Positions 1 through 44,299 of a stretch of DNA of 44,299 nt are shown here, piece after piece. This DNA comes from a virus. Location: the IMG/VR virus record IMGVR_UViG_3300033150_002085, positions 1-44,299 of that record. One strand, written 5' to 3'. The stretch's first letter is position 1. Every line of letters begins with the position of its first letter. Position numbers and translations under genes: made by a program. The notes under the pieces were generated by a model. The model was not told where the DNA came from. It saw nothing but the letters and a program-made list of their open reading frames with translations, and did no database searches.

Positions 1-114
1 CGTGGCGCGTTTTCGTGCGGCCGCCACGTTTCGCCCGTGTCGGCCCGGGGCTAGCCGGTCGACGGCGTGGTCGACGGCGTGGTTTTCGGCCGCGACGGGC
101 GAACGTCGTCGCCC
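1..114. repeat. Terminal direct repeat, left copy (identical to 44186..44299)
   Basis: Hand comparison shows bases 1-114 equal 44186-44299. This implies a circular assembly or a short terminal redundancy. Confidence 0.95.
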
Positions 115-332
115 GTGTGGCGTGGTGTGGCGCGATACCAACGGCCGTCGTCGCGTTGGACCACCTCGAACCGGAGCCGCGCGGCCGTTCGCAGCCGGAT
201 GCGCCGGCCCGAGAACACGTTTGTCCCGACCCAGCCGCCGTAGGGGCTCGTGGCGTCCACGCGGACGGGGACGAGCCGCCCGGCGACGTTGACGGCGTAG
301 GTTTTCCCGATGGCGACGTCCTTCTTACGCAT
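51..332 (-). CDS. Hypothetical 93-aa protein, co-operonic with the amidoligase
   Basis: SD AAGGAGG lies 5 nt upstream of the ATG on the minus strand. The gene starts 26 nt after the amidoligase stop. The C-terminal tail TTPSTTPSTG is encoded by the tandem GGTCGACGGCGT repeats. No family recognised. Confidence 0.6.
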   Translation of the reverse strand: MRKKDVAIGKTYAVNVAGRLVPVRVDATSPYGGWVGTNVFSGRRIRLRTAARLRFEVVQRDDGRWYRATPRHTGDDVRPSRPKTTPSTTPSTG

Positions 333-358
333 GGCGTCCTCCTTTCATTTCGCGCGTC

Positions 359-1297
359 TTACGCGCCGTCGAACTTCTGCGCGAGCCGCCGCAGCTCGCG
401 CTTGGCGTTCTTAATCTCGTCGATATCTTCAATCCAACCCGCGGCCACGCAGGCGGGCTTGCGGTAGTCCTTGCGGCCGCGGACCCAGCCGGCCAGGTAA
501 AAGAACCGTTGGAGCGCCCCGCTCGCGGTGGTGATGTCGGCGTAGGTCACCGGCTTGGCGTCGAAGTCGGTGGGGCGCTTGCGGGCTAGCATGGCAAGCG
601 CGAGTGCCATTTGGACCCACGCTTTTGCCTTGCGGGCGTTGACCGTTCCGCTGAAGCAGCGGAACTCGACCGTGCCGTGGCTTACGAGCGCTCGCACGTT
701 GAGCGAGTGGTAGCGTCCAATCCAGCGGCCGACGTTGTTTATTTCGTCGTAGGTGGGGTTCTTCTTGGCGAGCACCGAGTCTTTGTATTGCGCCCAGGCG
801 TCCGGGTGCTTGATGGACCGGCAGTAACGCGAGCGGAGCCGGCGGCGGCTGCCGCTCGCCCCATAGAACGCCAGTTCGTGGTTGGCGGCGTGCAGGACGA
901 GCCGGCGAACCCAGGCGGCGACGGTGCGGAAGTCGTCCGCCCCGCACCCGCTGGTCGCTTCGACGTGGACGTGGAAGCCGCAGGTCGCGTTGACGCGAGC
1001 GCCGGCTTCGCGGAGCCGCTTGCAAACCTGCTCGATTTGGGCCAGGCCGTCTCGCCCGCGGAGCGGCGGCGAAACGAACTCGTAGCCGCGCCAGCCGCGC
1101 TGGTTGGTGTCGACCGATGAGTCCGACTTCGATTTCCAGCCCGGCGGGAAGCCGTGGTCATCGAGCCGTTTGGGCCGGCTGTAGGAGCCCCGCGGAATGT
1201 CGCATCGCCGGGGCAGGAGCACCTCGAATTCCACGCCGAACCGAATGGTTTCGGCTGCGGCGTCGCGTTCGTGCGTTTGCGTCCTCGTCGTCGTCAT
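359..1297 (-). CDS. Amidoligase_2-family (GS/GCS2-like carboxylate-amine ligase) protein
   Basis: 312 aa. Motifs GVEFEV, YEFVSPPL, CGFHVHV and TVEFRCF match my memory of the amidoligase enzyme family (PF12224). SD GAAAGGA precedes the ATG. Confidence 0.8.
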   Translation of the reverse strand: MTTTRTQTHERDAAAETIRFGVEFEVLLPRRCDIPRGSYSRPKRLDDHGFPPGWKSKSDSSVDTNQRGWRGYEFVSPPLRGRDGLAQIEQVCKRLREAGARVNATCGFHVHVEATSGCGADDFRTVAAWVRRLVLHAANHELAFYGASGSRRRLRSRYCRSIKHPDAWAQYKDSVLAKKNPTYDEINNVGRWIGRYHSLNVRALVSHGTVEFRCFSGTVNARKAKAWVQMALALAMLARKRPTDFDAKPVTYADITTASGALQRFFYLAGWVRGRKDYRKPACVAAGWIEDIDEIKNAKRELRRLAQKFDGA

Positions 1298-1333: not shown

Positions 1334-1380
1334 TATTTACCGGTTTTCGCCAAGTTGTCAAGGCAAAATCCAGGAATTTT
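1334..1380 (-). promoter_or_regulatory. Leftward sigma70-like promoter with abutting palindromic operator
   Basis: On the minus strand: -35 TTGACA (1356-1361), 16-nt spacer, -10 TAAATA (1334-1339). Imperfect palindrome AAAATTCCTGGATTTT lies at 1365-1380. The cassette is near-identical to those at 23474-23520 and 31279-31325. Confidence 0.65.
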
Positions 1381-3611: not shown

Positions 3612-5061
3612 TTTCCTGCGACGCCCGCGAAACCTCCGCGAGCAGACGCCGCCGCAGCACGCCGGCAAAATGACCGCCGCCGCAGCGCTGGCCGATGTGG
3701 AAGGGTTCGGCCTGGCTCCCGCAGGCACCTTCGACACCTACCGCAAGATGCGAGGGAACCCGACCATCGCGATGGCACGCATCGCCGCGCACGCACCTAT
3801 CCGCTCGGCCACGTTCTCGTTCGTCACCGCCGATGACGGCAGCGACGAGCTGCGCGAATGGGTCGAGGAGAAGGTGCGGCCGCTCTGGCCCGTTCTGCTG
3901 CGCGACCTGCTCTACGCCCTCGACTACGGGTTCATGGCCTTTGAGAAGGTGTGGCGCGTGGACGAGGATGGGAAGCTCGTCTACGACCGGCTGAAGCCAC
4001 TCCTGGTCGACAAGACGGTCATCCTCGTGGACGAGAAGACCGGGGCGTATCGAGGCCTGCGCCAGGGCGCGGTCGTCCTGCCGCCCGAGAAGACATTCCT
4101 CTTCACCTACGACGGCGAGGCGGGCGACCTCTACGGCCGCAGCCGGCACGAGAACGTCCGCGAGGCCTGGCACCGCTGGAATAAGCTGGCCGAGCGGCAG
4201 GAGAAGTACATCCGCAAGGTCAGCGGGGTAACGCCCATGGTCGAGTACCCTCCCGGGAGGTCGCTCGACGCCTCGGGTGCCGAGCAGGACAACTACGACC
4301 TAGCGGTGGCGGTGCTCGAGAACCTCGGCCGCGGCCAAGGCGTGGCCATGCCGAACGTCCTGGCGTCCTACGCCGAAGACCTCGTCCGGCAGGGCATCGA
4401 CATCTCCCAGTTGCGAGCGTGGCAGATTGAGTTCCTGGAGCCGAAGTCCTCGCACGGCAGCGAGTTCGTGGAGATGATGCGGCACCTTGAGACGCAGCTC
4501 TGCCGCGGCTGGCTCATCCCTGAGCGGGCGGTCCAGGAGGGCCAGCACGGCACGCTGGCCGAGGCCGAGGCCCACGCCCGCCTGTCGCTGGTCGTGGCTG
4601 AACTGCTCCTGCGCGACATCGCCCGCGCGGTCAACGACTACGTCATCGCACCTCTGCTCGCCGTTAACTTCGGGCAGGAGCGGGCGAAGGAGGTGGCGCT
4701 CGAGCCGCAAGGCCTCGACGCGGCGAACCAGGCCTTTTTCCGCGACCTCCTCTCGAAGGTCATCGGGGCCCCTCAGAACGTGGACCTGTTCCTGGACCTT
4801 CTCGACGTCGACGCGCTGCTCGACATGGCGGACCTGCCACGGCAGCGGAGCGCGAGCGAGGTCGAGCCCCCTCCGCCGGCCGAGAAGGGTGGCGAGGGTG
4901 CTGAGCCGGGTGGCAATGGCGACGGAGCCGTCCGGCCCGAGACCATCGAGGACCGGATGGCCATCCGCGCGGCGAGGCGAAGCCTCCTGCGGTCCATTTA
5001 CGATTCGGAACTCTGGCGAGGGCTGAGGGCCAATGCGACCAGGAGCGATGACCGCGGCTGA
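3592..5061 (+). CDS. Portal protein (Mu gp29/DUF935-like by context)
   Basis: 489 aa. Sits directly after TerL and before the MuF-family gene, with coupled overlaps at both ends. Confidence 0.75.
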
Positions 5062-7714
5062 GCGGCGACGACTCGTCGTCGCGTTGGCCCATCAGCAGGA
5101 CGCTGACCGCAGGCGGCTGGAGCGGGTCGGGCTCCGCGCGGCCAACAACATCGGCCTGCGGATGCTGCGGCGCGCGACCGCGGCCTTCCGCCAGCACGGA
5201 GACCCCCTGGAACCCGTGCGTGAGCTCCTGTTGGGCGACCTCGCCGACGTCGTCCGCGACGGCATGGTGGCCGCCCACTTGCAGGGGCGGTTGCGGTCGC
5301 TGCAGGTGGCGAAGGCCTACTACAGCCGGCGGCAATACCTGAGCGTTTACTCCGACGCGCTGAATTTCCTCTACAAGCGGCTCAACGTCGGCCCGGACGA
5401 CGTGCAGCGCCTCGCCGAAACCTACAGCGAGGCGGCCATCCGGGTTTGCGGCTCGGCCAATGCCCTCCTGGAGAAGCGCGTCTCCCTGGCGATGACGCAG
5501 GCGGTCGGCACGGGTGCCCACGTGGAAGAGGGTGTCGAGCTGCTGCGAGACGCCTTCGCCGCGGCGGGCGTGACGCCGCGAAACCCCTTCTTGCTCGAGA
5601 CGATTTTCCGCACGCAGGTCCAGCTGGCGTACTCGGCTGGGCGGATGTCGGCGAACGCGGACCCGGCCATCGACGAGATTCTGTGGGGCTACGAGTACGT
5701 GACGGTCGGCGACGACCGCGTCCGTCCAACGCACGCCGCCCTCGACGGCATGCGGCTGCCGAAGGACGACCCGCGCTGGGCGGAGTTTACGCCACCGAAC
5801 GGGTGGAACTGCAGGTGCGCCATCGTCGAGATATTCGACAAGGGCACCCCGAAACCTCCGCCCGACACGATTAAGGTCGACGGCCAAGAAGTGCCGGTTC
5901 GCCCGGATGCGGGGTGGGCGTTCAATCCGGGCATGCTCTACCGCGACCTGATGGCGGTGCCCGAAGCCGCGAAGATTGGCCTCGGCTCGCTTGGCGCGGC
6001 TGAGCGGGTGCTGTCAGAACTCGGCCGCCCCGCCACGACCGACGAGATTCTAAACATTGCCATTTCTAAGGGTTATTGGGCACCTGGCGGGAAAACGCCG
6101 AAGTCCACACTCTACGCCGCGCTGATGAAGGAGGCGAAAAAGCCGGCGGGCAAAATCGTGAAGACCGCGCCCAACACCTGGGGGTTGCGGAGCGGCGCGA
6201 AGGTCGCCAAGCCGAAGGCGGTGCCGAAGGCAGCGCCGAAGGCAGCGCCGAAACCGAAACCGAAACCCGCGCCCGAGCCGGCCCCGGCTCCCGCGCCGCC
6301 CGACGTGCCTGTGGTGGAGCCCCAAACCGCGGCCGGCAAGAAGGCGGCGAAGAAGATTCGCCAGCTGGCCGAGGAGGTCGGTGTCCGCGGCGACGTCCCG
6401 GACGAGGCGCTCGAGGCCATCGCGCAGACCGTCGACGACATGAATGCACTATTCTCGAAGGCTCCGAAGTTTCGGAGAATCGTTATTGACGGCACGCCCG
6501 GGCCCGCTGGTGAGATGGCCACTTACCATTCAGCGACGGACACCATTTACATCAACGCAACCGAGATTCGGACGCGGTTTCTCGCCCTCGGCAACGACAA
6601 GCCGTGGCGGGCGTACTCGCTGCACCCGGCGTTCCACGACCAGGTCTACGCATTCGGTGAGTCAGTCGGCGACGTGGTCCGCCACGAAATCGGCCACGCC
6701 CTCTGGCATAAGCTGCCCGAGCAGGCGAAGCAGGCGTGGGGCTCGGTCCACGACCCGTCCTCGCTGCTGGGGAAGCTCTACGCCAAGAAGATGATTACGC
6801 AGTACGGTGCGACCGGCGGGCCGGCCGAGGCCTTCGCCGAGGCGTTCGCCTACTTCACGCACCCCTCGTATGGGGCTTTCGGCTCGCACAACATCATGCC
6901 GTTCCTGCCGGACGACGTGCAGGACTTTTTCCGCAGCATCCTCTACCCCCGCCTCGGCCCCGACATCGCCAACCTCAAGGCCAAGGCGTTCATCGAGGTC
7001 AAGAAGGTTGCCCAGACCGAGACCGCCGAGAAGGTGGTGAAGCACGCCGAGGAGGTCGCCAAGGCCAAGGCCAAGGCGACGACGGCCACGACAAAGGGGA
7101 AGGCGGCCAAGAAGGCCGCCAAGCCGAAAATGCCGGAGGCCGGCGAAAAGGGCCTGCCCACGCTGAGATATGGCTCGAAGGAGTTCGAGCCGCTGCCCAC
7201 CAAGAAGGCGCCCGGCCGGATGACGAAAGACGAAAAGGAGCTGCTGAAGGCCTACACGGGCGACCTCTACGAAGAGCTGAACGACGTCCTTCGCATCAGG
7301 GCCGAGGACTGCAAGCCGTTGTCGAGGCGGTGGGAAGCCACCACCGAGGCGATTCGGAGCGCCCTCTCCAAAATCAAGCCCCACCGCGGCGTCACCTGGC
7401 GGGGCATCGGCCTGCGAGGCAAAAAGAGCTTCCGCCGCATTGTCGAAAGCCACGAGCCCGGGTCGGTGCTCGTGATGGACTCGTTCTGGTCCTCGTCGGT
7501 GAGCGAACGTATCGCCGAGGACTTCGCCAAGGGCTACCCCTACAAGGTCGTTTTCAAAATCAAGGGAAAGACAGGTCGAAACATCAAGAAGTTTTCGTAT
7601 TGTCCATACGAGGACGAAATCCTCTTCGCGCCCGGGACGCGGTACCGGGTCGTCAGCAAAAAGCTTGTCATGCGAGACCCCGAGCACTACCTTATCGAAC
7701 TGGAGGAGTTGTAA
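5048..7714 (+). CDS. Polyvalent head protein: MuF/SPP1 gp7 domain + HARE-HTH-like + zincin metallopeptidase + C-terminal ADP-ribosyltransferase
   Basis: MuF motif [20 protein letters not shown]...NGWNCRC. HTH-like segment [23 protein letters not shown] at 6683-6697. ART R-S-ExE triad: R 7400-7402, SSS 7490-7498, EDE 7610-7618. AKPK/PAP and KA-rich linkers. SD AGGAG precedes ATG 5048. Confidence 0.9.
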
Positions 7715-23311: not shown

Positions 23312-23473
23312 GCCGCGCGTGTGGCCGTGTGTGCGGCCTGCCGGCGGGGTGGCCCTTAGACGCGACGGCCACCGCGATAGGCCGCCAGGGGCCAACGTGG
23401 GCCGCGAGACGCCGCCCCCGGGCGACCATGCCTGCGGCCCCTGGCGGCCACCGGCCGCGGCGAAAAAAATCGG

Positions 23474-23520
23474 AAAATCCCAGGATTTTGCCTTGACAAC
23501 TCGACGAAAACCGCTAGAAT
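23474..23520 (+). promoter_or_regulatory. Sigma70-like promoter with palindromic operator
   Basis: Operator AAAATCCCAGGATTTT (23474-23489), -35 TTGACA (23493-23498), 16-nt spacer, -10 TAGAAT (23515-23520). Confidence 0.7.
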
Positions 23521-23549: not shown

Positions 23550-23723
23550 ATGGACGCCACGACCCTCCGAAACGACCTGCAGGACGCGATTGAGAACGCT
23601 GGCTGGGACGACCTCCGCCGAGTGGTTACCTTCGGCGAAGCGGGCTTGCTGACCCGCGACGAGGGCCTGGTTCTGAAGTTCGAGGACGGGACCGAGTTCG
23701 AGGTTACCATCACGCCGCGGTGA
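23550..23723 (+). CDS. Hypothetical 57-aa protein (below the ORF-track length cutoff)
   Basis: Hand translation gives MDATTLRNDLQDAIENAGWDD...EVTITPR. SD AAAGGAG is 7 nt upstream. It is the first gene after the promoter. Confidence 0.55.
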   Translation: MDATTLRNDLQDAIENAGWDDLRRVVTFGEAGLLTRDEGLVLKFEDGTEFEVTITPR

Positions 23724-33231: not shown

Positions 33232-33662
33232 TGGATGGTGTTGAAAGCGTCGTGTGGGCCGTTGCTTTCGTGGTCATCGTTCTCGTGCTTTTCAGCCGCC
33301 GGAAACGGCCAGCCCCGGAGGAGCGGCGGCGGGCCAAGACGTCGCCGCAGGTGTTCGAGGCGGGGCTGCTCAAGGTCCGCATCGAGCGAGGCCTCCCGGG
33401 CGGCAGGTGGCGGTGCGACATTTTCTCGCCGCAGGGGTCCGCGCAGATTGAAATCAAGAAGGACGACCCGCTCGCGAGCGACCGCGAAATGGCCCGGCGG
33501 GTGGTCCGGTTCCTGCGAGACCTGGCCAACAACCCCGCGGTGATGCTGAGAAGCTGGGAGCTTCCCGAGGCGAAGGAGGACGCCCTCAACGCCCTGGACA
33601 CTGCGCTGCAGCTCAAGCCCTACCTCGACCATGCATGCGCCGATTTGGAGGAAAATCGATGA
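33231..33662 (+). CDS. Hypothetical membrane-anchored protein, paralog B of a tandem pair
   Basis: 143 aa. N-terminal TM helix VVWAVAFVVIVLVLF. Shares RVVRFL...ALQLKPYLD with the previous gene. Confidence 0.55.
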   Translation: MDGVESVVWAVAFVVIVLVLFSRRKRPAPEERRRAKTSPQVFEAGLLKVRIERGLPGGRWRCDIFSPQGSAQIEIKKDDPLASDREMARRVVRFLRDLANNPAVMLRSWELPEAKEDALNALDTALQLKPYLDHACADLEENR

Positions 33663-34462
33663 GCGCCGTCTCGTGCCAGCCGACATTTTCACGCCGCGCG
33701 TCGGGGCTCTACGTGCCAGCGCGACTCCGCCGCCCCGTGGCCATCGACCTGTTCTGCGGCTGCGGAGGGATGAGCCTCGGTTTCATTCAGGCGGGGTTCG
33801 AGGTCGTGGCTGCCTTGGACAACAACCCCGCGGCGGCGACGACCTACATGTATAACCTGGGTGCGTATCCGTGCCAGTTCCACTTCGCCGACGACGACGC
33901 CCGCGACCGTCTGGAGCGGCACCTCGCCAAGTCGATGCAGAACCAGCATGGCGTCGCCGTGATGCCCGTATCGGGCGGGGCCAGGGCCGACGGGCCGTTC
34001 GAGGGTTGGCCGGAGGGGTATCCCGGCGTCCAGCACTTCTTTTTCGGCGACGCGCGGGCGTTCACCGGTGAGCAGATTCTCGAGGCCGTCGGCTTGGAAC
34101 CCGGCGCGGTGGACTGCGTGTGCGGTGGACCGCCCTGCCAGGGGTTCACTCGGGCCAACCGCTATCGCGGCCCGGACGACCCGCGAAATAACCTGGTTTT
34201 CGAGTTCGCCCGCCTAGTCCTCGAAATTCGGCCGAAGACCATCCTGATGGAGAACGTGCCCGAAATCGCCTCGATGATGACCCCCGAGGGCATCTCGGTC
34301 CTGGACAAGTTCTGCCTCATCCTGGAAGAGGGCGGGTTCGCCGCGGCCGACGCACTGAAGCGCGTGCTGCTCGCCAAGCCGGGTGCCCGCGTGTGCCGGC
34401 GGGCACAGGCGTCGAAGCCGAAACCTGAACCGCGCGCAAGCAATCAGCCCATGCTGTTCTGA
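33659..34462 (+). CDS. DNA (cytosine-5) methyltransferase, N-terminal half only
   Basis: 267 aa. Motif I DLFCGCGG, motif IV GGPPCQGFT and motif VI ENVPE are present. I see no QxRxR, TRD or GNAVP motifs before the stop. Confidence 0.8.
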   Translation: MSAVSCQPTFSRRASGLYVPARLRRPVAIDLFCGCGGMSLGFIQAGFEVVAALDNNPAAATTYMYNLGAYPCQFHFADDDARDRLERHLAKSMQNQHGVAVMPVSGGARADGPFEGWPEGYPGVQHFFFGDARAFTGEQILEAVGLEPGAVDCVCGGPPCQGFTRANRYRGPDDPRNNLVFEFARLVLEIRPKTILMENVPEIASMMTPEGISVLDKFCLILEEGGFAAADALKRVLLAKPGARVCRRAQASKPKPEPRASNQPMLF

Positions 34463-35013: not shown

Positions 35014-35297
35014 AAGTCACCGAACGCGAAGCCGACGAGGCACTGGTCCCGGCCGAATGGCACGACCCGCAACCGCGGCACGTCGCCGAACGCGCCCTGA
35101 CCGCCCTCATCCAGTGGGGCTACGAGCGCACGAAAGACCTCGACGAGACCACCCGCTGGGTGTTCAGTGAAGCGCACGCCGTCCTGCTCGATGCGGTGAG
35201 CCGCCTCGCCGACGAGGAAGCCGCCGAGCGGCCGAACGAGGGGCTGATGGAGGCCGTCCAGGCCTACCTCGACGACACGCGAAACGTGCTGGAATGA
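34998..35297 (+). CDS. Hypothetical protein
   Basis: 99 aa from ATG 34998 with SD GAGGAGGGAGG upstream. Confidence 0.5.
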   Translation: MRDRLKVTEREADEALVPAEWHDPQPRHVAERALTALIQWGYERTKDLDETTRWVFSEAHAVLLDAVSRLADEEAAERPNEGLMEAVQAYLDDTRNVLE

Positions 35298-36217
35298 GCG
35301 ACGCCGCGCAAGAACTCGACCAGGCCGTCACCGAGCACCTCGAAGGTGCCAGCCGCGTGATGGCCCCCATCGGGTGGTTCGGCGGGAAAGGTCTCCACGC
35401 CAAACGCCTCGTCCCGCACATTCCGTGGTCCCGCGTCTACTGCGAGCCCTACTGCGGGGCGGCCAGCGTGTTCTGGCACCTGCAGCCGCGGCCCGTCGAG
35501 GTGCTCAACGACCTGAACGGGGAAATCATCGCCCTTTTCCGGTGCCTGCAGGACCGCGCGCTGTTCGAGGAGCTCCGTCACCGCCTTCTGTGGACGCCTT
35601 ACAGCCGCGCCGAGTTCTGCCGTGCCCTCGAGACGCCCGCCGACGCCCCGCTCCTCGACCGCGCCTGGGCGACGTTCGTCAAGTACAACCAGGGTACCTG
35701 CGGCGTGGGGCAAACACCTGGCAACTGGGGAAGGGTGTTCACCGCTGCGAACGGGATGGCCAACGTCGCCAGCAAGTGGCGCGTCCGCCTACGGCTCCTC
35801 AAGGCCTGGCACGACCGCCTGACCCGCGTCCAACTCGACAACCGCGACGCCCTCGAGGTTATCCGCTACTGGGACACGCCGGACACGTTTTTCTACGTCG
35901 ACCCGCCCTACGTGCCCGAGACGCGAAGCAGCACGCAGGTCTACCGGTGCGAAGCGACCGCCGACCACCACCGCGACCTCGTCGCGCTCCTCCTCACACT
36001 GAGGGGTGGCGCAGCCGTAAGCGGGTATGACCACCCGATTTACAGGCCCCTCGAGGACGCCGGGTGGGAGCGGCACGAATTCGAGACCGTTTGCCACGCC
36101 GCCGCTCGGACGCGCACCAGTGCCCTGCAGGGCAAGGGGGCCCTGGAGGCGCGCGTGCCGCGAACCGAAGTCGTATGGGTGAAGCCGCTCAAGACGGGCG
36201 GCCTGTTCCCGTTGTAG
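35294..36217 (+). CDS. dam: DNA adenine methyltransferase (Dam/D12 class)
   Basis: 307 aa. Motif I-like EPYCGAASVF and catalytic DPPY (FFYVDPPY). ATGA coupling. Confidence 0.85.
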   Translation: MSDAAQELDQAVTEHLEGASRVMAPIGWFGGKGLHAKRLVPHIPWSRVYCEPYCGAASVFWHLQPRPVEVLNDLNGEIIALFRCLQDRALFEELRHRLLWTPYSRAEFCRALETPADAPLLDRAWATFVKYNQGTCGVGQTPGNWGRVFTAANGMANVASKWRVRLRLLKAWHDRLTRVQLDNRDALEVIRYWDTPDTFFYVDPPYVPETRSSTQVYRCEATADHHRDLVALLLTLRGGAAVSGYDHPIYRPLEDAGWERHEFETVCHAAARTRTSALQGKGALEARVPRTEVVWVKPLKTGGLFPL

Positions 36218-42017: not shown

Positions 42018-43367
42018 ATGGCAAACGAGAAGATTGTCGATGCGTTATCGCACCTGGTGGTGCCGATTGACAGCGTCTCGCCGGACCCGGCGAACGTGCG
42101 GAAGCACCCCGAGCGGAACCTCGAGGCGATTCGGGGTTCGCTGCGGAAGTTCGGGCAGCAGAAGCCCATCGTCGTCAACGAGGAGGGGGTGATTCTGGCG
42201 GGGAACGGCCTTTACGAGGCCGCGAAGTCGCTGGGCTGGGAGAAAATCGCCGCGGTGCGGTCGCCGCTCACAGGCGTGGACGCGGCGGCCTACGCCATCG
42301 CCGACAACCGCACGGCCGAGCTGGCGGAGTGGGACGAGGAGCAGCTCGGCGTCCATCTGACCGAGCTGCGTGAGGCGGAGTTCGAGCTCGACGCCATCGG
42401 TTTCACGCCCGAGGAGATTCAGGCGCTGCTGGGCGATACGCCGCTCGCCGAGGGGCAAACCGACGACGACGCGGTTCCCGAGCCACCGGACGACCCAGTG
42501 ACGCAGCGTGGCGACCTGTGGATTCTCGGCAACCACCGGCTGCTCTGCGGCGACGCGGGCAAGACGGAGGACGTCGACCGGCTGCTTGACGGCGCGGTGA
42601 TTCACCTGGTGAACACCGACCCGCCGTATGGCGTGAAAGTCGAGCCGCGGTCGAGTACGGCGATTGCGGCCGGCCAAAGTTCGTTCCCGGACCTGTCGGG
42701 CAAGATGCACCATCAGGGCTTCGACGTGGCGCGTGGCGTGACTGACCCCGGCAAAGCGCGCAAGAAGATGCGGCCGAAGGACCGGCCGCTCGAGGGCGAC
42801 TTCCTGCCGGAGGACGAGTTCGTCAAACTGCTCGAGGCGTGGTTCGGCCAAATCGCTCGCGTGCTGCAGCCTGGCGGGACGTTCTACATTTGGGGCGGCT
42901 ACGCCAACTGCGCCAACTACCCGCCCGTCCTGCGTGCCTGCAAGTTGTACTTCTCGCAGGCCATCATTTGGGTGAAGGAGCATCCGGTTCTCACGCGGAA
43001 AGACTTCATGGGCAACCATGAGTGGTGTTTCTACGGCTGGAAGGAGGGAGCCGCGCACCGGTTCTTTGGCCCGCCCAACGTGACCGACGTCTGGAGCGTC
43101 AAGAAGGTGAACCCGCAGTCGATGGTCCACCTCACCGAGAAGCCGGTCGAGCTGGCGTTGCGGGCGCTCCAGTACTCGTCGCAGGAAGGCGAGAACGTTC
43201 TGGACCTTTTCGGCGGCTCGGGCAGCACGCTGATTGCGTGCGAGAAGGCCCATCGGCGCTGCTACACGATGGAAATCGACCCGCTTTACTGCGACGTCAT
43301 CGTGCAGCGCTGGGAGGAGTTCACCGACAAGAAGGCCGAGCGCGTGCGTGCGGAGGGCGCGGCATGA
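42018..43367 (+). CDS. ParB-like nuclease domain fused to an N6/N4 DNA methyltransferase
   Basis: 449 aa. ParB-N pattern PANVRKHPERNL...GNGLYEA. TDPPYG catalytic motif, then SAM motif VLDLFGGSGST (beta-class order). Confidence 0.9.
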   Translation: MANEKIVDALSHLVVPIDSVSPDPANVRKHPERNLEAIRGSLRKFGQQKPIVVNEEGVILAGNGLYEAAKSLGWEKIAAVRSPLTGVDAAAYAIADNRTAELAEWDEEQLGVHLTELREAEFELDAIGFTPEEIQALLGDTPLAEGQTDDDAVPEPPDDPVTQRGDLWILGNHRLLCGDAGKTEDVDRLLDGAVIHLVNTDPPYGVKVEPRSSTAIAAGQSSFPDLSGKMHHQGFDVARGVTDPGKARKKMRPKDRPLEGDFLPEDEFVKLLEAWFGQIARVLQPGGTFYIWGGYANCANYPPVLRACKLYFSQAIIWVKEHPVLTRKDFMGNHEWCFYGWKEGAAHRFFGPPNVTDVWSVKKVNPQSMVHLTEKPVELALRALQYSSQEGENVLDLFGGSGSTLIACEKAHRRCYTMEIDPLYCDVIVQRWEEFTDKKAERVRAEGAA

Positions 43368-43741
43368 TGGTCTACCTGGCGAGTCCCTACGCCCACCCGG
43401 ACCCCGCGACGAGGGAGGCGCGGTTCCGCGCGGCGTGCCGGCAGGCGGCCAGCCTTCTGCGCTGCGGCATCAACGTCTACTCGCCCATCGCCCACACGCA
43501 CGGCATCGCCGCCGAGGGCGACCTGCCGACGGACTGGTCGTTCTGGGAGAAGTTCGACCGGCAATACATCAAAATGTGTGACGAGGTGTGGGTGTTGGCC
43601 CTCGACGGCTGGGAAGAGTCGCGCGGCGTCCAGGCGGAGATTGCGCTGGCCAGGAAGCTCGGCAAGCCGGTCGTGGTGCTGGAGCCGGAGGCCGCCATCG
43701 CTAACCGTAGGAACCACGGGGTCGTGATGGCACGACGATAG
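43364..43741 (+). CDS. DUF1937 / nucleoside 2-deoxyribosyltransferase-like protein
   Basis: 125 aa. ATGA coupling. VYLASPY...VYSPIAHTH...W.ESRGVQAEIALA resembles DUF1937. Confidence 0.65.
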   Translation: MMVYLASPYAHPDPATREARFRAACRQAASLLRCGINVYSPIAHTHGIAAEGDLPTDWSFWEKFDRQYIKMCDEVWVLALDGWEESRGVQAEIALARKLGKPVVVLEPEAAIANRRNHGVVMARR

Positions 43742-43822: not shown

Positions 43823-44011
43823 CTACACGCCGTTCTTCTCCAGCCAGTCGTGGACGGCCTCTCGGATGAGTTGCGAGCGGGTCACCAGCTGGCCCGTCTC
43901 GAGCTGGCGGCGGTGCATCGCCTCGAGGAGGCGGTCGTGGACGTCCTTCGGCAGGACGAAGTTGACGTTGACGCGCTCCGCTTTTTCGGCATTTTGCTGT
44001 TTCCGGCCCAT
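43823..44011 (-). CDS. Ribbon-helix-helix (CopG/Arc/MetJ-like) DNA-binding protein
   Basis: 62 aa. VNVNFVLPKDVHDRLLEAM...SQLIREAVHDWLEK fits the beta-alpha-alpha RHH pattern. SD AAAGGAG. Confidence 0.75.
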   Translation of the reverse strand: MGRKQQNAEKAERVNVNFVLPKDVHDRLLEAMHRRQLETGQLVTRSQLIREAVHDWLEKNGV

Positions 44012-44043
44012 TTGCGTTCTCCTTTCGTTCTAGGCTCGACACC

Positions 44044-44071
44044 ATTCTAACTTCAAATGCGGCGTTGTCAA
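44044..44071 (-). promoter_or_regulatory. Sigma70-like promoter of the RHH gene
   Basis: On the minus strand: -35 TTGACA (44066-44071), 16-nt spacer, -10 TAGAAT (44044-44049). The AAAATCC..GGATTTT operator is absent. Confidence 0.6.
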
Positions 44072-44079
44072 GTCAAGGT

Positions 44080-44299
44080 GTCGTTTTTCGTGGCGCGTGC
44101 GGCGGCCGACGTTCGCCCGTGTTGGCCCAACGCCCGTCGAATGCCGTCCTGGTCGACGGGTGCGTTTTCGGCCGCGACGGGCGAACGTGGCGCGTTTTCG
44201 TGCGGCCGCCACGTTTCGCCCGTGTCGGCCCGGGGCTAGCCGGTCGACGGCGTGGTCGACGGCGTGGTTTTCGGCCGCGACGGGCGAACGTCGTCGCCC
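44080..44299. repeat. Iteron-like repeat cluster (continues into 1..120 across the junction)
   Basis: A 24-bp unit TTTTCGGCCGCGACGGGCGAACGT occurs at 44165-44188 and 44268-44291. The 12-mer ACGTT(T)CGCCCGT in the opposite orientation occurs at 44109-44120 and 44211-44223. Tandem GGTCGACGGCGT x2 lies at 44242-44265. Confidence 0.8.

Follow-up and report, generated by a model that had tools for sequence, protein, structure and literature searches.

Does a small protein encoded directly behind a phage amidoligase work together with that enzyme? The locus at the left end of the window (the whole stretch of viral DNA analysed, 44,299 nucleotides) raises this question, since the sequence-only reading took the small protein to be a tag, substrate or specificity partner of the ligase. 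The explanation we favor, with moderate confidence, is that a phage of about 44 kb carries two functionally independent genes under one leftward promoter: an amidoligase, and a stand-alone barrel protein whose tail comes from a repeat.

A probable two-gene unit near the window end

The amidoligase gene (312 aa, TAA stop) occupies positions 359..1297 and the gene for the 93-aa protein (TAG stop) positions 51..332, both on the minus strand. The gap between them is 26 nt, and the ribosome-binding site of the second gene, AAAGGAGG, can be read at 338..345 on the same strand, ending 5 nt 5' of the ATG. The arrangement first described, two minus-strand genes with a short gap and a strong Shine-Dalgarno sequence, is thus borne out. 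GC contents at codon positions 1/2/3 of 0.64/0.51/0.85 and 0.65/0.60/0.88, together with homologues for each, show that both ORFs are genuine genes and did not arise by chance in this GC-rich genome.

A putative sigma-70-like promoter of the operon, TTGACA-16-TAAATA, was read by eye on the minus strand at 1334..1361 (-35 box at 1361-1356, -10 box at 1339-1334), while a stricter consensus promoter scan of 1-1700 listed none, including this one at 1361..1334. Two exact direct copies of AAAACCGGWAAAT on the minus strand (1335-1347 and 1376-1388) bracket the -35 box and form a candidate operator. The window contains three matches to this sequence, the third at 23466-23478 with one mismatch, against 0.00 expected from shuffles. 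A layout of both genes under one such promoter, as previously proposed, is plausible. The -35 context TTGACAAC is common to this promoter and to the one that appears, again by eye, to precede a ribbon-helix-helix gene (TTGACA-16-TAGAAT, 44071-44066 and 44049-44044, minus strand). The latter gene (62 aa, 44011-43823, minus strand) belongs to the next transcription unit, 43823..44071; it matches RHH_1 only weakly, at E=0.0021 and with a score under the gathering threshold.

The window ends share a direct repeat of 114 bp, positions 1..114 being identical to 44186-44299, so that the window is probably a complete phage genome of 44,185 bp, circular or terminally redundant; the last 21 codons of the 93-aa gene lie within this repeat. 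DNA similarity to known phages amounts to a chance-level 113-bp match with Pseudomonas phage PaMx74. Scans of the window with Rfam and for tRNAs gave no matches, and a PADLOC scan matched no defence system. Across the junction, about 0.5-0.9 kb 3' of the 93-aa gene, two plus-strand genes assigned by Pfam converge with it: a DUF1937/nucleoside-deoxyribosyltransferase-like gene (43361-43741) and a ParB_N-N6_N4 DNA methyltransferase gene (42018-43367). Both keep a conserved position as neighbors of the barrel gene described below. Hence the earlier placement of the operon away from any nucleotide genes does not quite hold.

The amidoligase and its likely chemistry

The 312-aa protein matches PF12224 (Amidoligase_2) over residues 19-234 with E=8.6e-29 and 101.6 bits (cut-off 22), and also matches the PHROG annotated as 'amidoligase enzyme' (5.5e-30). 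In Pfam, PF12224 is the sole family at E<=0.1, joined at E<=1 by one chance match far below threshold. Across the homologues, 29 columns are invariant, and the residues invariant in 20 homologues include E23, E25, E73, H109, H111, R195, E211 and R213. The conserved active-site-type residues are intact, and by analogy the invariant Glu, His and Arg would bind metal and ATP. The AlphaFold model of the protein has a pLDDT of 90.7. Its top 50 PDB matches in Foldseek are all YbdK, glutamine synthetase, gamma-glutamylcysteine synthetase/glutathione synthetase or GmaS, and PafA was not found among them. Profile match, invariant columns and predicted fold thus agree on a PF12224 ligase of glutamine-synthetase fold, which is what the enzyme had been called. 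As with other members of the family, its gene is carried by a phage and sits apart from the block of structural genes. Iyer et al. 2009 reportedly treated such glutamine-synthetase-like amidoligases of phages and mobile elements, and this work and Aravind & Iyer 2012 are said to be the founding comparative papers. The homologues we collected come mainly from Phycisphaerae/Planctomycetota assemblies.

The best structural matches (1tt4, 1r8g and 1v4g, E 2e-5 to 2e-4) belong to YbdK/GCS2 and gamma-glutamylcysteine synthetase, although TM-scores are only 0.40-0.46 and identity is about 14%. The sequence match to the YbdK family TIGR02050 is likewise weak (E 2.8e-4; 20 bits against a cut-off of 176), so the enzyme is not a member of it. 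If the enzyme works like YbdK, gamma-glutamylcysteine synthetase and glutamine synthetase, it would phosphorylate a carboxylate with ATP, and the acyl group would then pass to an amine.

The Pfam description of PF12224 gives the family a conserved neighborhood, in which the gene of a thiol peptidase resembling amidotransferases or of a cyclotransferase of the Aig2 type is found. The usual neighbor among the loci we compared is a class-II glutamine amidotransferase, encoded directly downstream of the amidoligase in 54 of 113. The window enzyme differs in this respect: a homologue of its relatives' amidotransferase family is absent from the whole window and from the window's amidoligase clade, and the window genes scanned include neither a cyclotransferase nor an ATP-grasp gene. 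This adjacency is a contextual feature of PF12224, not a requirement for membership. The clade also differs from other relatives in that its amidoligase gene opens a short leftward operon adjoining the terminase genes. Since the clade lacks the amidotransferase that about half of the relatives have, the amine donor is probably free ammonia or another free amine.

These results bear on what the enzyme might make. It is possible, if short of probable, that the product of the amidoligase, by synthesis or by amidation, is a small metabolite of gamma-glutamyl type, or that the enzyme acts on the cell envelope and modifies it, in either case without any involvement of the 93-aa protein; the effect could be a block to superinfection, or a rewiring of nitrogen or amino-acid metabolism by an auxiliary metabolic gene. 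The closest folds, all of them small-molecule glutamate ligases, point in this direction, as does the amidotransferase beside so many relatives. Cell-wall modification and secondary-metabolite synthesis are among the earlier suggestions cited in PMC10580990, and an auxiliary-metabolism role was proposed for Phycisphaerae phage genes that encode an amidoligase, an amidotransferase and a gamma-glutamylcyclotransferase (PMC10945688). This literature consists of proposals rather than enzyme assays, however, and the window has no amidotransferase, nor a cyclotransferase or ATP-grasp partner among its scanned genes. Such a role is compatible with two independent genes and is one candidate answer to what the substrate is. 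PMC10580990 and PMC8989533 treat the function of phage amidoligases as unresolved, in agreement with the sequence-only reading, which had called it experimentally unknown.

A barrel domain usually joined to HARE-HTH

Residues 1-68 of the 93-aa protein (129..332, minus strand) are predicted to fold as a Tudor/SH3-like beta-barrel of six strands, with a pLDDT of about 90, and the barrel is basic (pI 11.6). The model superposes on Agenet, Tudor and PWWP domains, the 'Royal family' of SH3-like barrels, with an rmsd of 1.1-2.3 A over 43-51 columns (about 49 residues), yet it has no sequence similarity to them and the Foldseek E-values are only 0.02-0.3. A tblastn search of the 93-aa protein against phage records returned a single weak match, Virus Rctr197k, and sequence searches of solved structures with profiles of both proteins gave nothing meaningful.

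A profile search with the barrel reached 3,279 representative clusters and recovered the window protein at 5.7e-25; in jackhmmer the window protein scored E=5e-34 and the proteins of the compared loci 1e-16 to 1e-34. No match to this family exists in the Pfam, PHROGs, NCBIfam or PADLOC libraries. A by-product of the analysis is this widespread barrel domain, which lies outside the four curated libraries searched and as a rule comes fused to HARE-HTH. In nearly all of the 150 best-scoring proteins the barrel is N-terminal, HARE-HTH is carried by 56 of the 88 longer members tested, and a Lys/Ala/Pro/Thr-rich linker joins the barrel to this winged helix in most relatives. Split versions of the two domains occur (loci L063 and L105), as do stand-alone barrel proteins of 57-77 aa, stand-alone forms being common in the family.

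HARE-HTH (PF05066) occurs in proteins of phages and of restriction-modification systems. Over residues 1-57, the 93-aa protein is about 40-60% identical to the N-terminal domain of many such phage proteins; unlike these, it ends after a 25-aa tail and has no HARE-HTH domain. The sole HARE-HTH of the window sits within an 893-aa MuF/ADP-ribosyltransferase protein. We also considered a truncated HARE-HTH fusion and rejected it, as no HARE-HTH remnant lies 3' of the stop codon and the extra hairpin of the window barrel is also present in stand-alone homologues (P0002 and L084). Judged by its sequence relatives, then, the protein represents the free-standing form of a barrel domain that is common in phages and usually attached to HARE-HTH.

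The genomic setting of the family is recurrent. A ParB-fused DNA methyltransferase gene lies convergent with the barrel gene, 0.36-4.5 kb downstream, in 56 of 80 independent viral loci seeded with the barrel; the window is alike, with a distance of about 870 nt across the junction, and the 93-aa gene holds the same position as the genes of phage HARE-HTH proteins. HARE-HTH is recurrently linked to DNA methyltransferases, that of ASXL1 bound 6mA-containing DNA in vitro (PMC6591016), and the domain has been proposed as a reader of modified DNA (PMC6591016, PMC3417536). At the operon end, facing the ParB-fused methyltransferase, the stand-alone barrel would form part of a reader/regulator module, and its most likely role within it would be to bind DNA, chromatin or the transcription machinery. 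What suggests DNA binding is the nature of its fusion partners, its charge and the weak fold matches (E 0.02-0.3). With the barrel gene facing this methyltransferase in many phages, the two are a candidate reader/writer pair.

The same setting could be read as part of a DNA-modifying pathway, in which the amidoligase would act in post-replicative hypermodification of the phage's bases and the barrel/HARE-HTH family would read or target the modification. Other viral contigs do carry thymidine-hypermodification clusters with amidoligase and amidotransferase genes (PMC8989533). The proposed reader function of HARE-HTH, the operon facing a methyltransferase and a nucleoside-deoxyribosyltransferase-like gene, and the three DNA methyltransferases encoded by this phage would also fit. 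We nevertheless consider this improbable: no 5-hmdU kinase, aGPT-Pplase, dUMP hydroxymethylase or TET/JBP turned up in the Pfam scan, which covered 17 window proteins (about 30 smaller ORFs lay outside it), and the barrel family associates with the methyltransferase, not with the amidoligase.

This last point is seen in the 80 barrel-seeded loci, 71 of which have at least 4 kb of upstream sequence: none has an amidoligase within 10 kb, and none has an amidotransferase. From the side of the enzyme, a HARE-HTH gene lies on the same strand within 6 kb in 44 of the 113 amidoligase loci, and the jackhmmer survey placed a barrel within the fetched flanks in about 37 of 113, at variable positions, so most loci are without one. 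Within the close clade, what follows the amidoligase varies: in L003/L086, L005/L085, L006, L094 and L101 it is a barrel-HARE-HTH gene, whereas L002, L008, L084, L091 and L004 have other small ORFs there and L087-L090 have excisionase plus integrase. The barrel-HARE-HTH gene lies directly 3' of the amidoligase, 24-72 nt apart, in at least five close relatives.

Given this adjacency in close relatives and the HARE-HTH genes near 44 of 113 amidoligases, a functional link may exist in this lineage. One form that it could take is joint action of the amidoligase and the barrel/HARE-HTH protein on DNA or chromatin, where a reader-like protein would guide the ligase to modified DNA or a nucleoid protein, or would be the target of amidation at one of its own acidic side chains. 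The same neighborhoods make this conceivable, and we rate it as unlikely. If true, it would tie a ligase of glutamine-synthetase fold to a system for reading and writing DNA modifications.

The tag proposal and the origin of the tail

The proposal that prompted the analysis likened the pair to PafA and Pup, with the 93-aa protein as a Pup-like tag, substrate or specificity factor in a host-modifying or anti-defence reaction. In its favor are the two genes 26 nt apart under one promoter, the barrel gene lying directly 3' of the amidoligase as a HARE-HTH fusion in the close relatives listed above, and the tail, which was described as disordered and ending in ...TTPSTTPSTG. That description is confirmed by the model: residues 71-93 are predicted coil with a pLDDT of 55-66, against about 90 for residues 1-68.

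The remaining evidence leads us to regard the tag proposal as very unlikely. The likeness to pupylation extends only to the broad glutamine-synthetase-like fold class and to a small adjoining protein with a disordered C-terminus. The window ligase matches no PafA/Dop family in Pfam, and its structural neighbors are small-molecule ligases, with PafA outside the top 50. Whereas Pup is disordered and has a conserved GGQ/GGE, the 93-aa protein is predicted as a folded basic barrel ending in ...PSTG, from a family that is usually fused to HARE-HTH. The carboxylate that PafA uses belongs to the side chain of a C-terminal Glu and not to a C-terminal Gly, and this tail has no acidic residue after D76. 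Nor does the pair co-occur across genomes: the barrel is absent from most amidoligase loci, the amidoligase is absent from all barrel-seeded ones, and the recurrent neighbor of the enzyme is the amidotransferase, so that the expected conservation of the partner beside amidoligases is largely not observed. Conjugation of the 93-aa protein by the ligase, or guidance of the ligase by it, is accordingly not likely. The proposed partner comes from a different and far larger family, and the locus offers no easier way of testing phage amidoligase function by means of a tag-ligase model.

The tail itself has another source. The predicted disordered segment (residues 69-93 plus stop, 51..128, minus strand, ending ...GDDVRPSRPKTTPSTTPSTG*) is lineage-specific and unconserved in homologues; neither the tail nor its C-terminal Gly is present in any of 39 aligned homologues. 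Its DNA runs into a tandem 103-bp element. Unit 2 of this element, at 14..106 (= 44199-44291), has the inverted arms TTCGCCCGTGTCGGCC (30-45) and GGCCGCGACGGGCGAA (88-103) and contains the last 17 codons of the 93-aa gene (51-106). Unit 1, at 44096..44188, is 76% identical to unit 2; it follows directly in the downstream non-coding DNA, upstream of the ribbon-helix-helix gene promoter. Exact 16-mer arm sites are confined to the repeat element, and the RNA of the repeat region folds with z = -4.4, the hairpin spanning the stop codon of the 93-aa gene. The TTPSTTPSTG ending would thus arise because the reading frame enters a repeated, hairpin-forming regulatory element 5' of the next promoter.

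The amidoligase and its downstream gene

The minus strand of the window carries an ORF of 312 aa (359..1297) and one of 93 aa (51..332), separated by a 26-nt gap holding AAAGGAGG, whose end lies 5 nt ahead of the second ATG. Given their codon-position GC (GC3 of 0.85 and 0.88, respectively) and their homologues, both are real genes, which confirms the two-gene observation of the sequence-only reading. A putative promoter upstream of the amidoligase gene (TTGACA-16 nt-TAAATA, 1361..1334) is flanked by two exact copies of AAAACCGGWAAAT, with none expected by chance. Hence the proposed promoter under operator control is plausible. A third copy of AAAACCGGWAAAT, with one mismatch (23466-23478, +), lies upstream of a small gene (23550-23723) and may mark a co-regulated promoter.

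The enzyme had been correctly identified: the 312-aa protein matches PF12224 (Amidoligase_2) with E=8.6e-29, as well as a PHROG annotated amidoligase. Its homologues, 47-53% identical, were recovered in metagenomes and in Phycisphaerae/Planctomycetota assemblies, and an alignment of 20 homologues has invariant columns including E23, E25, E73, H109, H111, R195, E211 and R213. The AlphaFold model has a pLDDT of 90.7, and its best 50 PDB neighbours (E 2e-5 to 3e-3, TM 0.35-0.46) are all YbdK or glutamine, gamma-glutamylcysteine/glutathione or gamma-glutamylmethylamide synthetases, PafA not being among them. Judging from the invariant residues, the confident model and these neighbours, the protein looks like an intact ATP-dependent carboxylate-amine ligase, presumably acting through an acyl-phosphate mechanism by analogy. 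Phage amidoligases have been proposed to modify the cell wall or make secondary metabolites (PMC10580990), to be associated with thymidine hypermodification (PMC8989533) and, in a Phycisphaerae phage, to serve nitrogen metabolism (PMC10945688).

The small protein and its domain family

Searches of Pfam, PHROGs, NCBIfam and PADLOC gave no match for the 93-aa protein. In its AlphaFold model, residues 1-68 form a six-stranded barrel (pLDDT about 90) and residues 71-93 are coil (55-66). The PDB neighbours of the barrel are Agenet, Tudor and PWWP domains at an rmsd of 1.1-2.3 A, with E-values of only 0.02-0.3, and the best viral match is a homologue with 44% identity. A direct search yielded a sole relative, P0002 (77 aa, 51% identity), which has no tail, and no amidoligase precedes it in the 326 upstream bases available.

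When the ORFs of all collected loci were searched iteratively, 43 barrel matches emerged. Nearly all are proteins of 160-250 aa in which a linker rich in Lys, Ala, Pro and Thr joins an N-terminal domain of ~55 aa to a C-terminal HARE-HTH (PF05066, E 1e-10 to 1e-17). Barrel and HARE-HTH are split in two loci (L063, L105), and stand-alone barrels of 57-77 aa are common. At E<=1e-3, the barrel profile retrieved 3,279 clusters from 1.84 billion representatives; almost all of the best matches have the domain at their N-terminus, and HARE-HTH is present in 56 of 88 longer family members. In one frequent variant, found in L133 (10001-10510), L139, L130 and some 25 loci like them, the barrel precedes a C-terminal region of roughly 100 aa (…DFSADELRRVVERAKAEILADVAAGTVP…YGGAFERPFDNNETDFWNAVQDAVD…) that has no Pfam match. 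Zinc ribbons are present in other variants (L161, L164), as is a long histone-H1-like tail rich in Lys, Ala and Pro (L138). In L054 (10417-10836) and L079 (9034-9387), the barrel-HARE-HTH gene is directly followed by a divergent second paralogue of the barrel, which has another C-terminal region.

Gene neighbourhoods of the amidoligase and of the barrel

The sequence-only reading had proposed the 93-aa protein as a tag, substrate or specificity partner of the amidoligase, on the model of Pup and PafA. Among 113 related amidoligase loci from IMG/VR and GTDB, the classical pairing is with a class-II glutamine amidotransferase (PF13522/PF13537), directly downstream in 54; the same pairing has been described for LUZ24-like and OM43 phages (PMC3890496, PMC10580990). 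It is missing from the window and from the closest amidoligase clade. In this clade the next gene varies, being a barrel-HARE-HTH gene after 24-72 nt (L003/L086, L005/L085, L006, L094, L101) or unrelated small ORFs (L002, L008, L084, L091, L004). In the MAG contigs L087-L090, also of this clade, an HTH_17 excisionase-like gene and a tyrosine integrase come next, which places the amidoligase at a prophage end there; the scanned genes of the window showed no integrase. A conserved 83-91-aa protein (M..TRIDIEG…DI.DY.R.IQ..AD), absent in the window, adjoins the amidoligase in the close clade, in L002 (6946-7203), L003 (5326-5577) and L008 (6946-7197). More distant loci have the barrel gene 1-3.7 kb downstream, 230-456 nt upstream, or not at all.

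The reciprocal test was decisive. It used 80 barrel-seeded IMG/VR loci whose flanks reach 10 kb at most; in 71 of them, no less than 4 kb lies upstream. None of the 80 has an amidoligase or amidotransferase within these flanks, so the proposed partnership is not supported. A ParB-fused DNA methyltransferase is present in 57, of which 56 have it on the strand opposite to the barrel gene, 0.36-4.5 kb downstream of that gene, exactly the arrangement found in the window. These counts indicate that the barrel gene is widespread in a broad phage group and positionally tied to the methyltransferase; the amidoligase is its optional neighbour. The locus comprises a PF12224 amidoligase that lacks the usual amidotransferase and, after it, a stand-alone copy of a phage domain that is uncurated but very common. 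A lineage-specific functional link between the amidoligase and the barrel/HARE-HTH gene is very improbable, and is retained because a HARE-HTH gene lies within 6 kb on the same strand in 44 of the 113 amidoligase loci.

Given the usual fusion to HARE-HTH through histone-H1-like linkers, the positive charge of the 93-aa protein (pI 11.6) and the fixed position of its gene opposite the methyltransferase, its most likely role is nucleic-acid or chromatin-type binding, possibly as a reader or regulator module. Links between HARE-HTH and DNA methyltransferases recur, and in vitro the HARE-HTH of ASXL1 bound 6mA-containing DNA (PMC6591016); another view favours sensing of cytosine modification (PMC11037411). 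The ParB-N6/N4 methyltransferase and the convergent barrel gene are a possible reader/writer pair.

The tail, the repeat element and the genome ends

The carboxylate of Pup that PafA ligates belongs to the side chain of a C-terminal Glu. A terminal Gly is therefore not what this chemistry calls for, and the tail has no acidic residue past D76. No homologue shares this tail: stand-alone barrels stop a few residues past a conserved RLR motif, with varied C-termini. No HARE-HTH remnant was found after the stop codon.

Bases 1-114 of the window recur exactly as its last 114 (44186-44299, a direct repeat), hence the window probably represents an entire phage genome of 44,185 bp, either circular or terminally redundant. 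The last 21 codons of the 93-aa gene fall within this repeat. Across the junction, the 3' side of the gene first meets two tandem 103-bp units, 76% identical (44096-44291, wrapping to 14-106), each with inverted 16-mers TTCGCCCGTGTYGGCC / GGCCGCGACGGGCGAA 36-42 nt apart; these exact sites occur nowhere else in the genome. Positions 51-106, which code for VRPSRPKTTPSTTPSTG and the stop codon, lie within the second unit, the other copy being next to it in non-coding DNA, and TTPSTTPS stems from a 12-bp duplication inside the unit. The best reading of the tail is a frame that runs into a regulatory element. The RNA of the region is unusually structured (z = -4.4), with a hairpin across the stop codon, and a ribbon-helix-helix gene has its promoter just downstream of the units; the element may serve as an operator array, in replication origin or packaging function, or as a 3' structure.

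Beyond the units follow this second promoter (TTGACA-16-TAGAAT) with the 62-aa ribbon-helix-helix gene, an inverted-repeat terminator, and the convergent DUF1937/nucleoside-deoxyribosyltransferase-like (43361-43741) and ParB-N6/N4 fusion methyltransferase (42018-43367, +) genes. With C5 Dcm-type (33635-34462, +) and D12 Dam-type (35294-36217, +) enzymes, the genome has three DNA methyltransferases; together with the DUF1937 gene, they suggest that the phage invests heavily in DNA methylation. Its other genes include those for SNF2 and UvrD helicases, a primase-like protein and a MarR regulator.

Divergent from the amidoligase promoter are genes for a DUF5681 protein, the large terminase, a Mu-type portal and an 893-aa MuF protein (5033-7714, +). 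The latter, a virion-type protein, combines Phage_Mu_F (residues 150-264), the sole HARE-HTH of the genome (322-387) and a C-terminal ADP-ribosyltransferase toxin domain (701-885; ART E=4e-12, ADPrib_exo_Tox E=2e-10), and from these domain matches looks like a MuF-type polymorphic toxin with a DNA-binding module.
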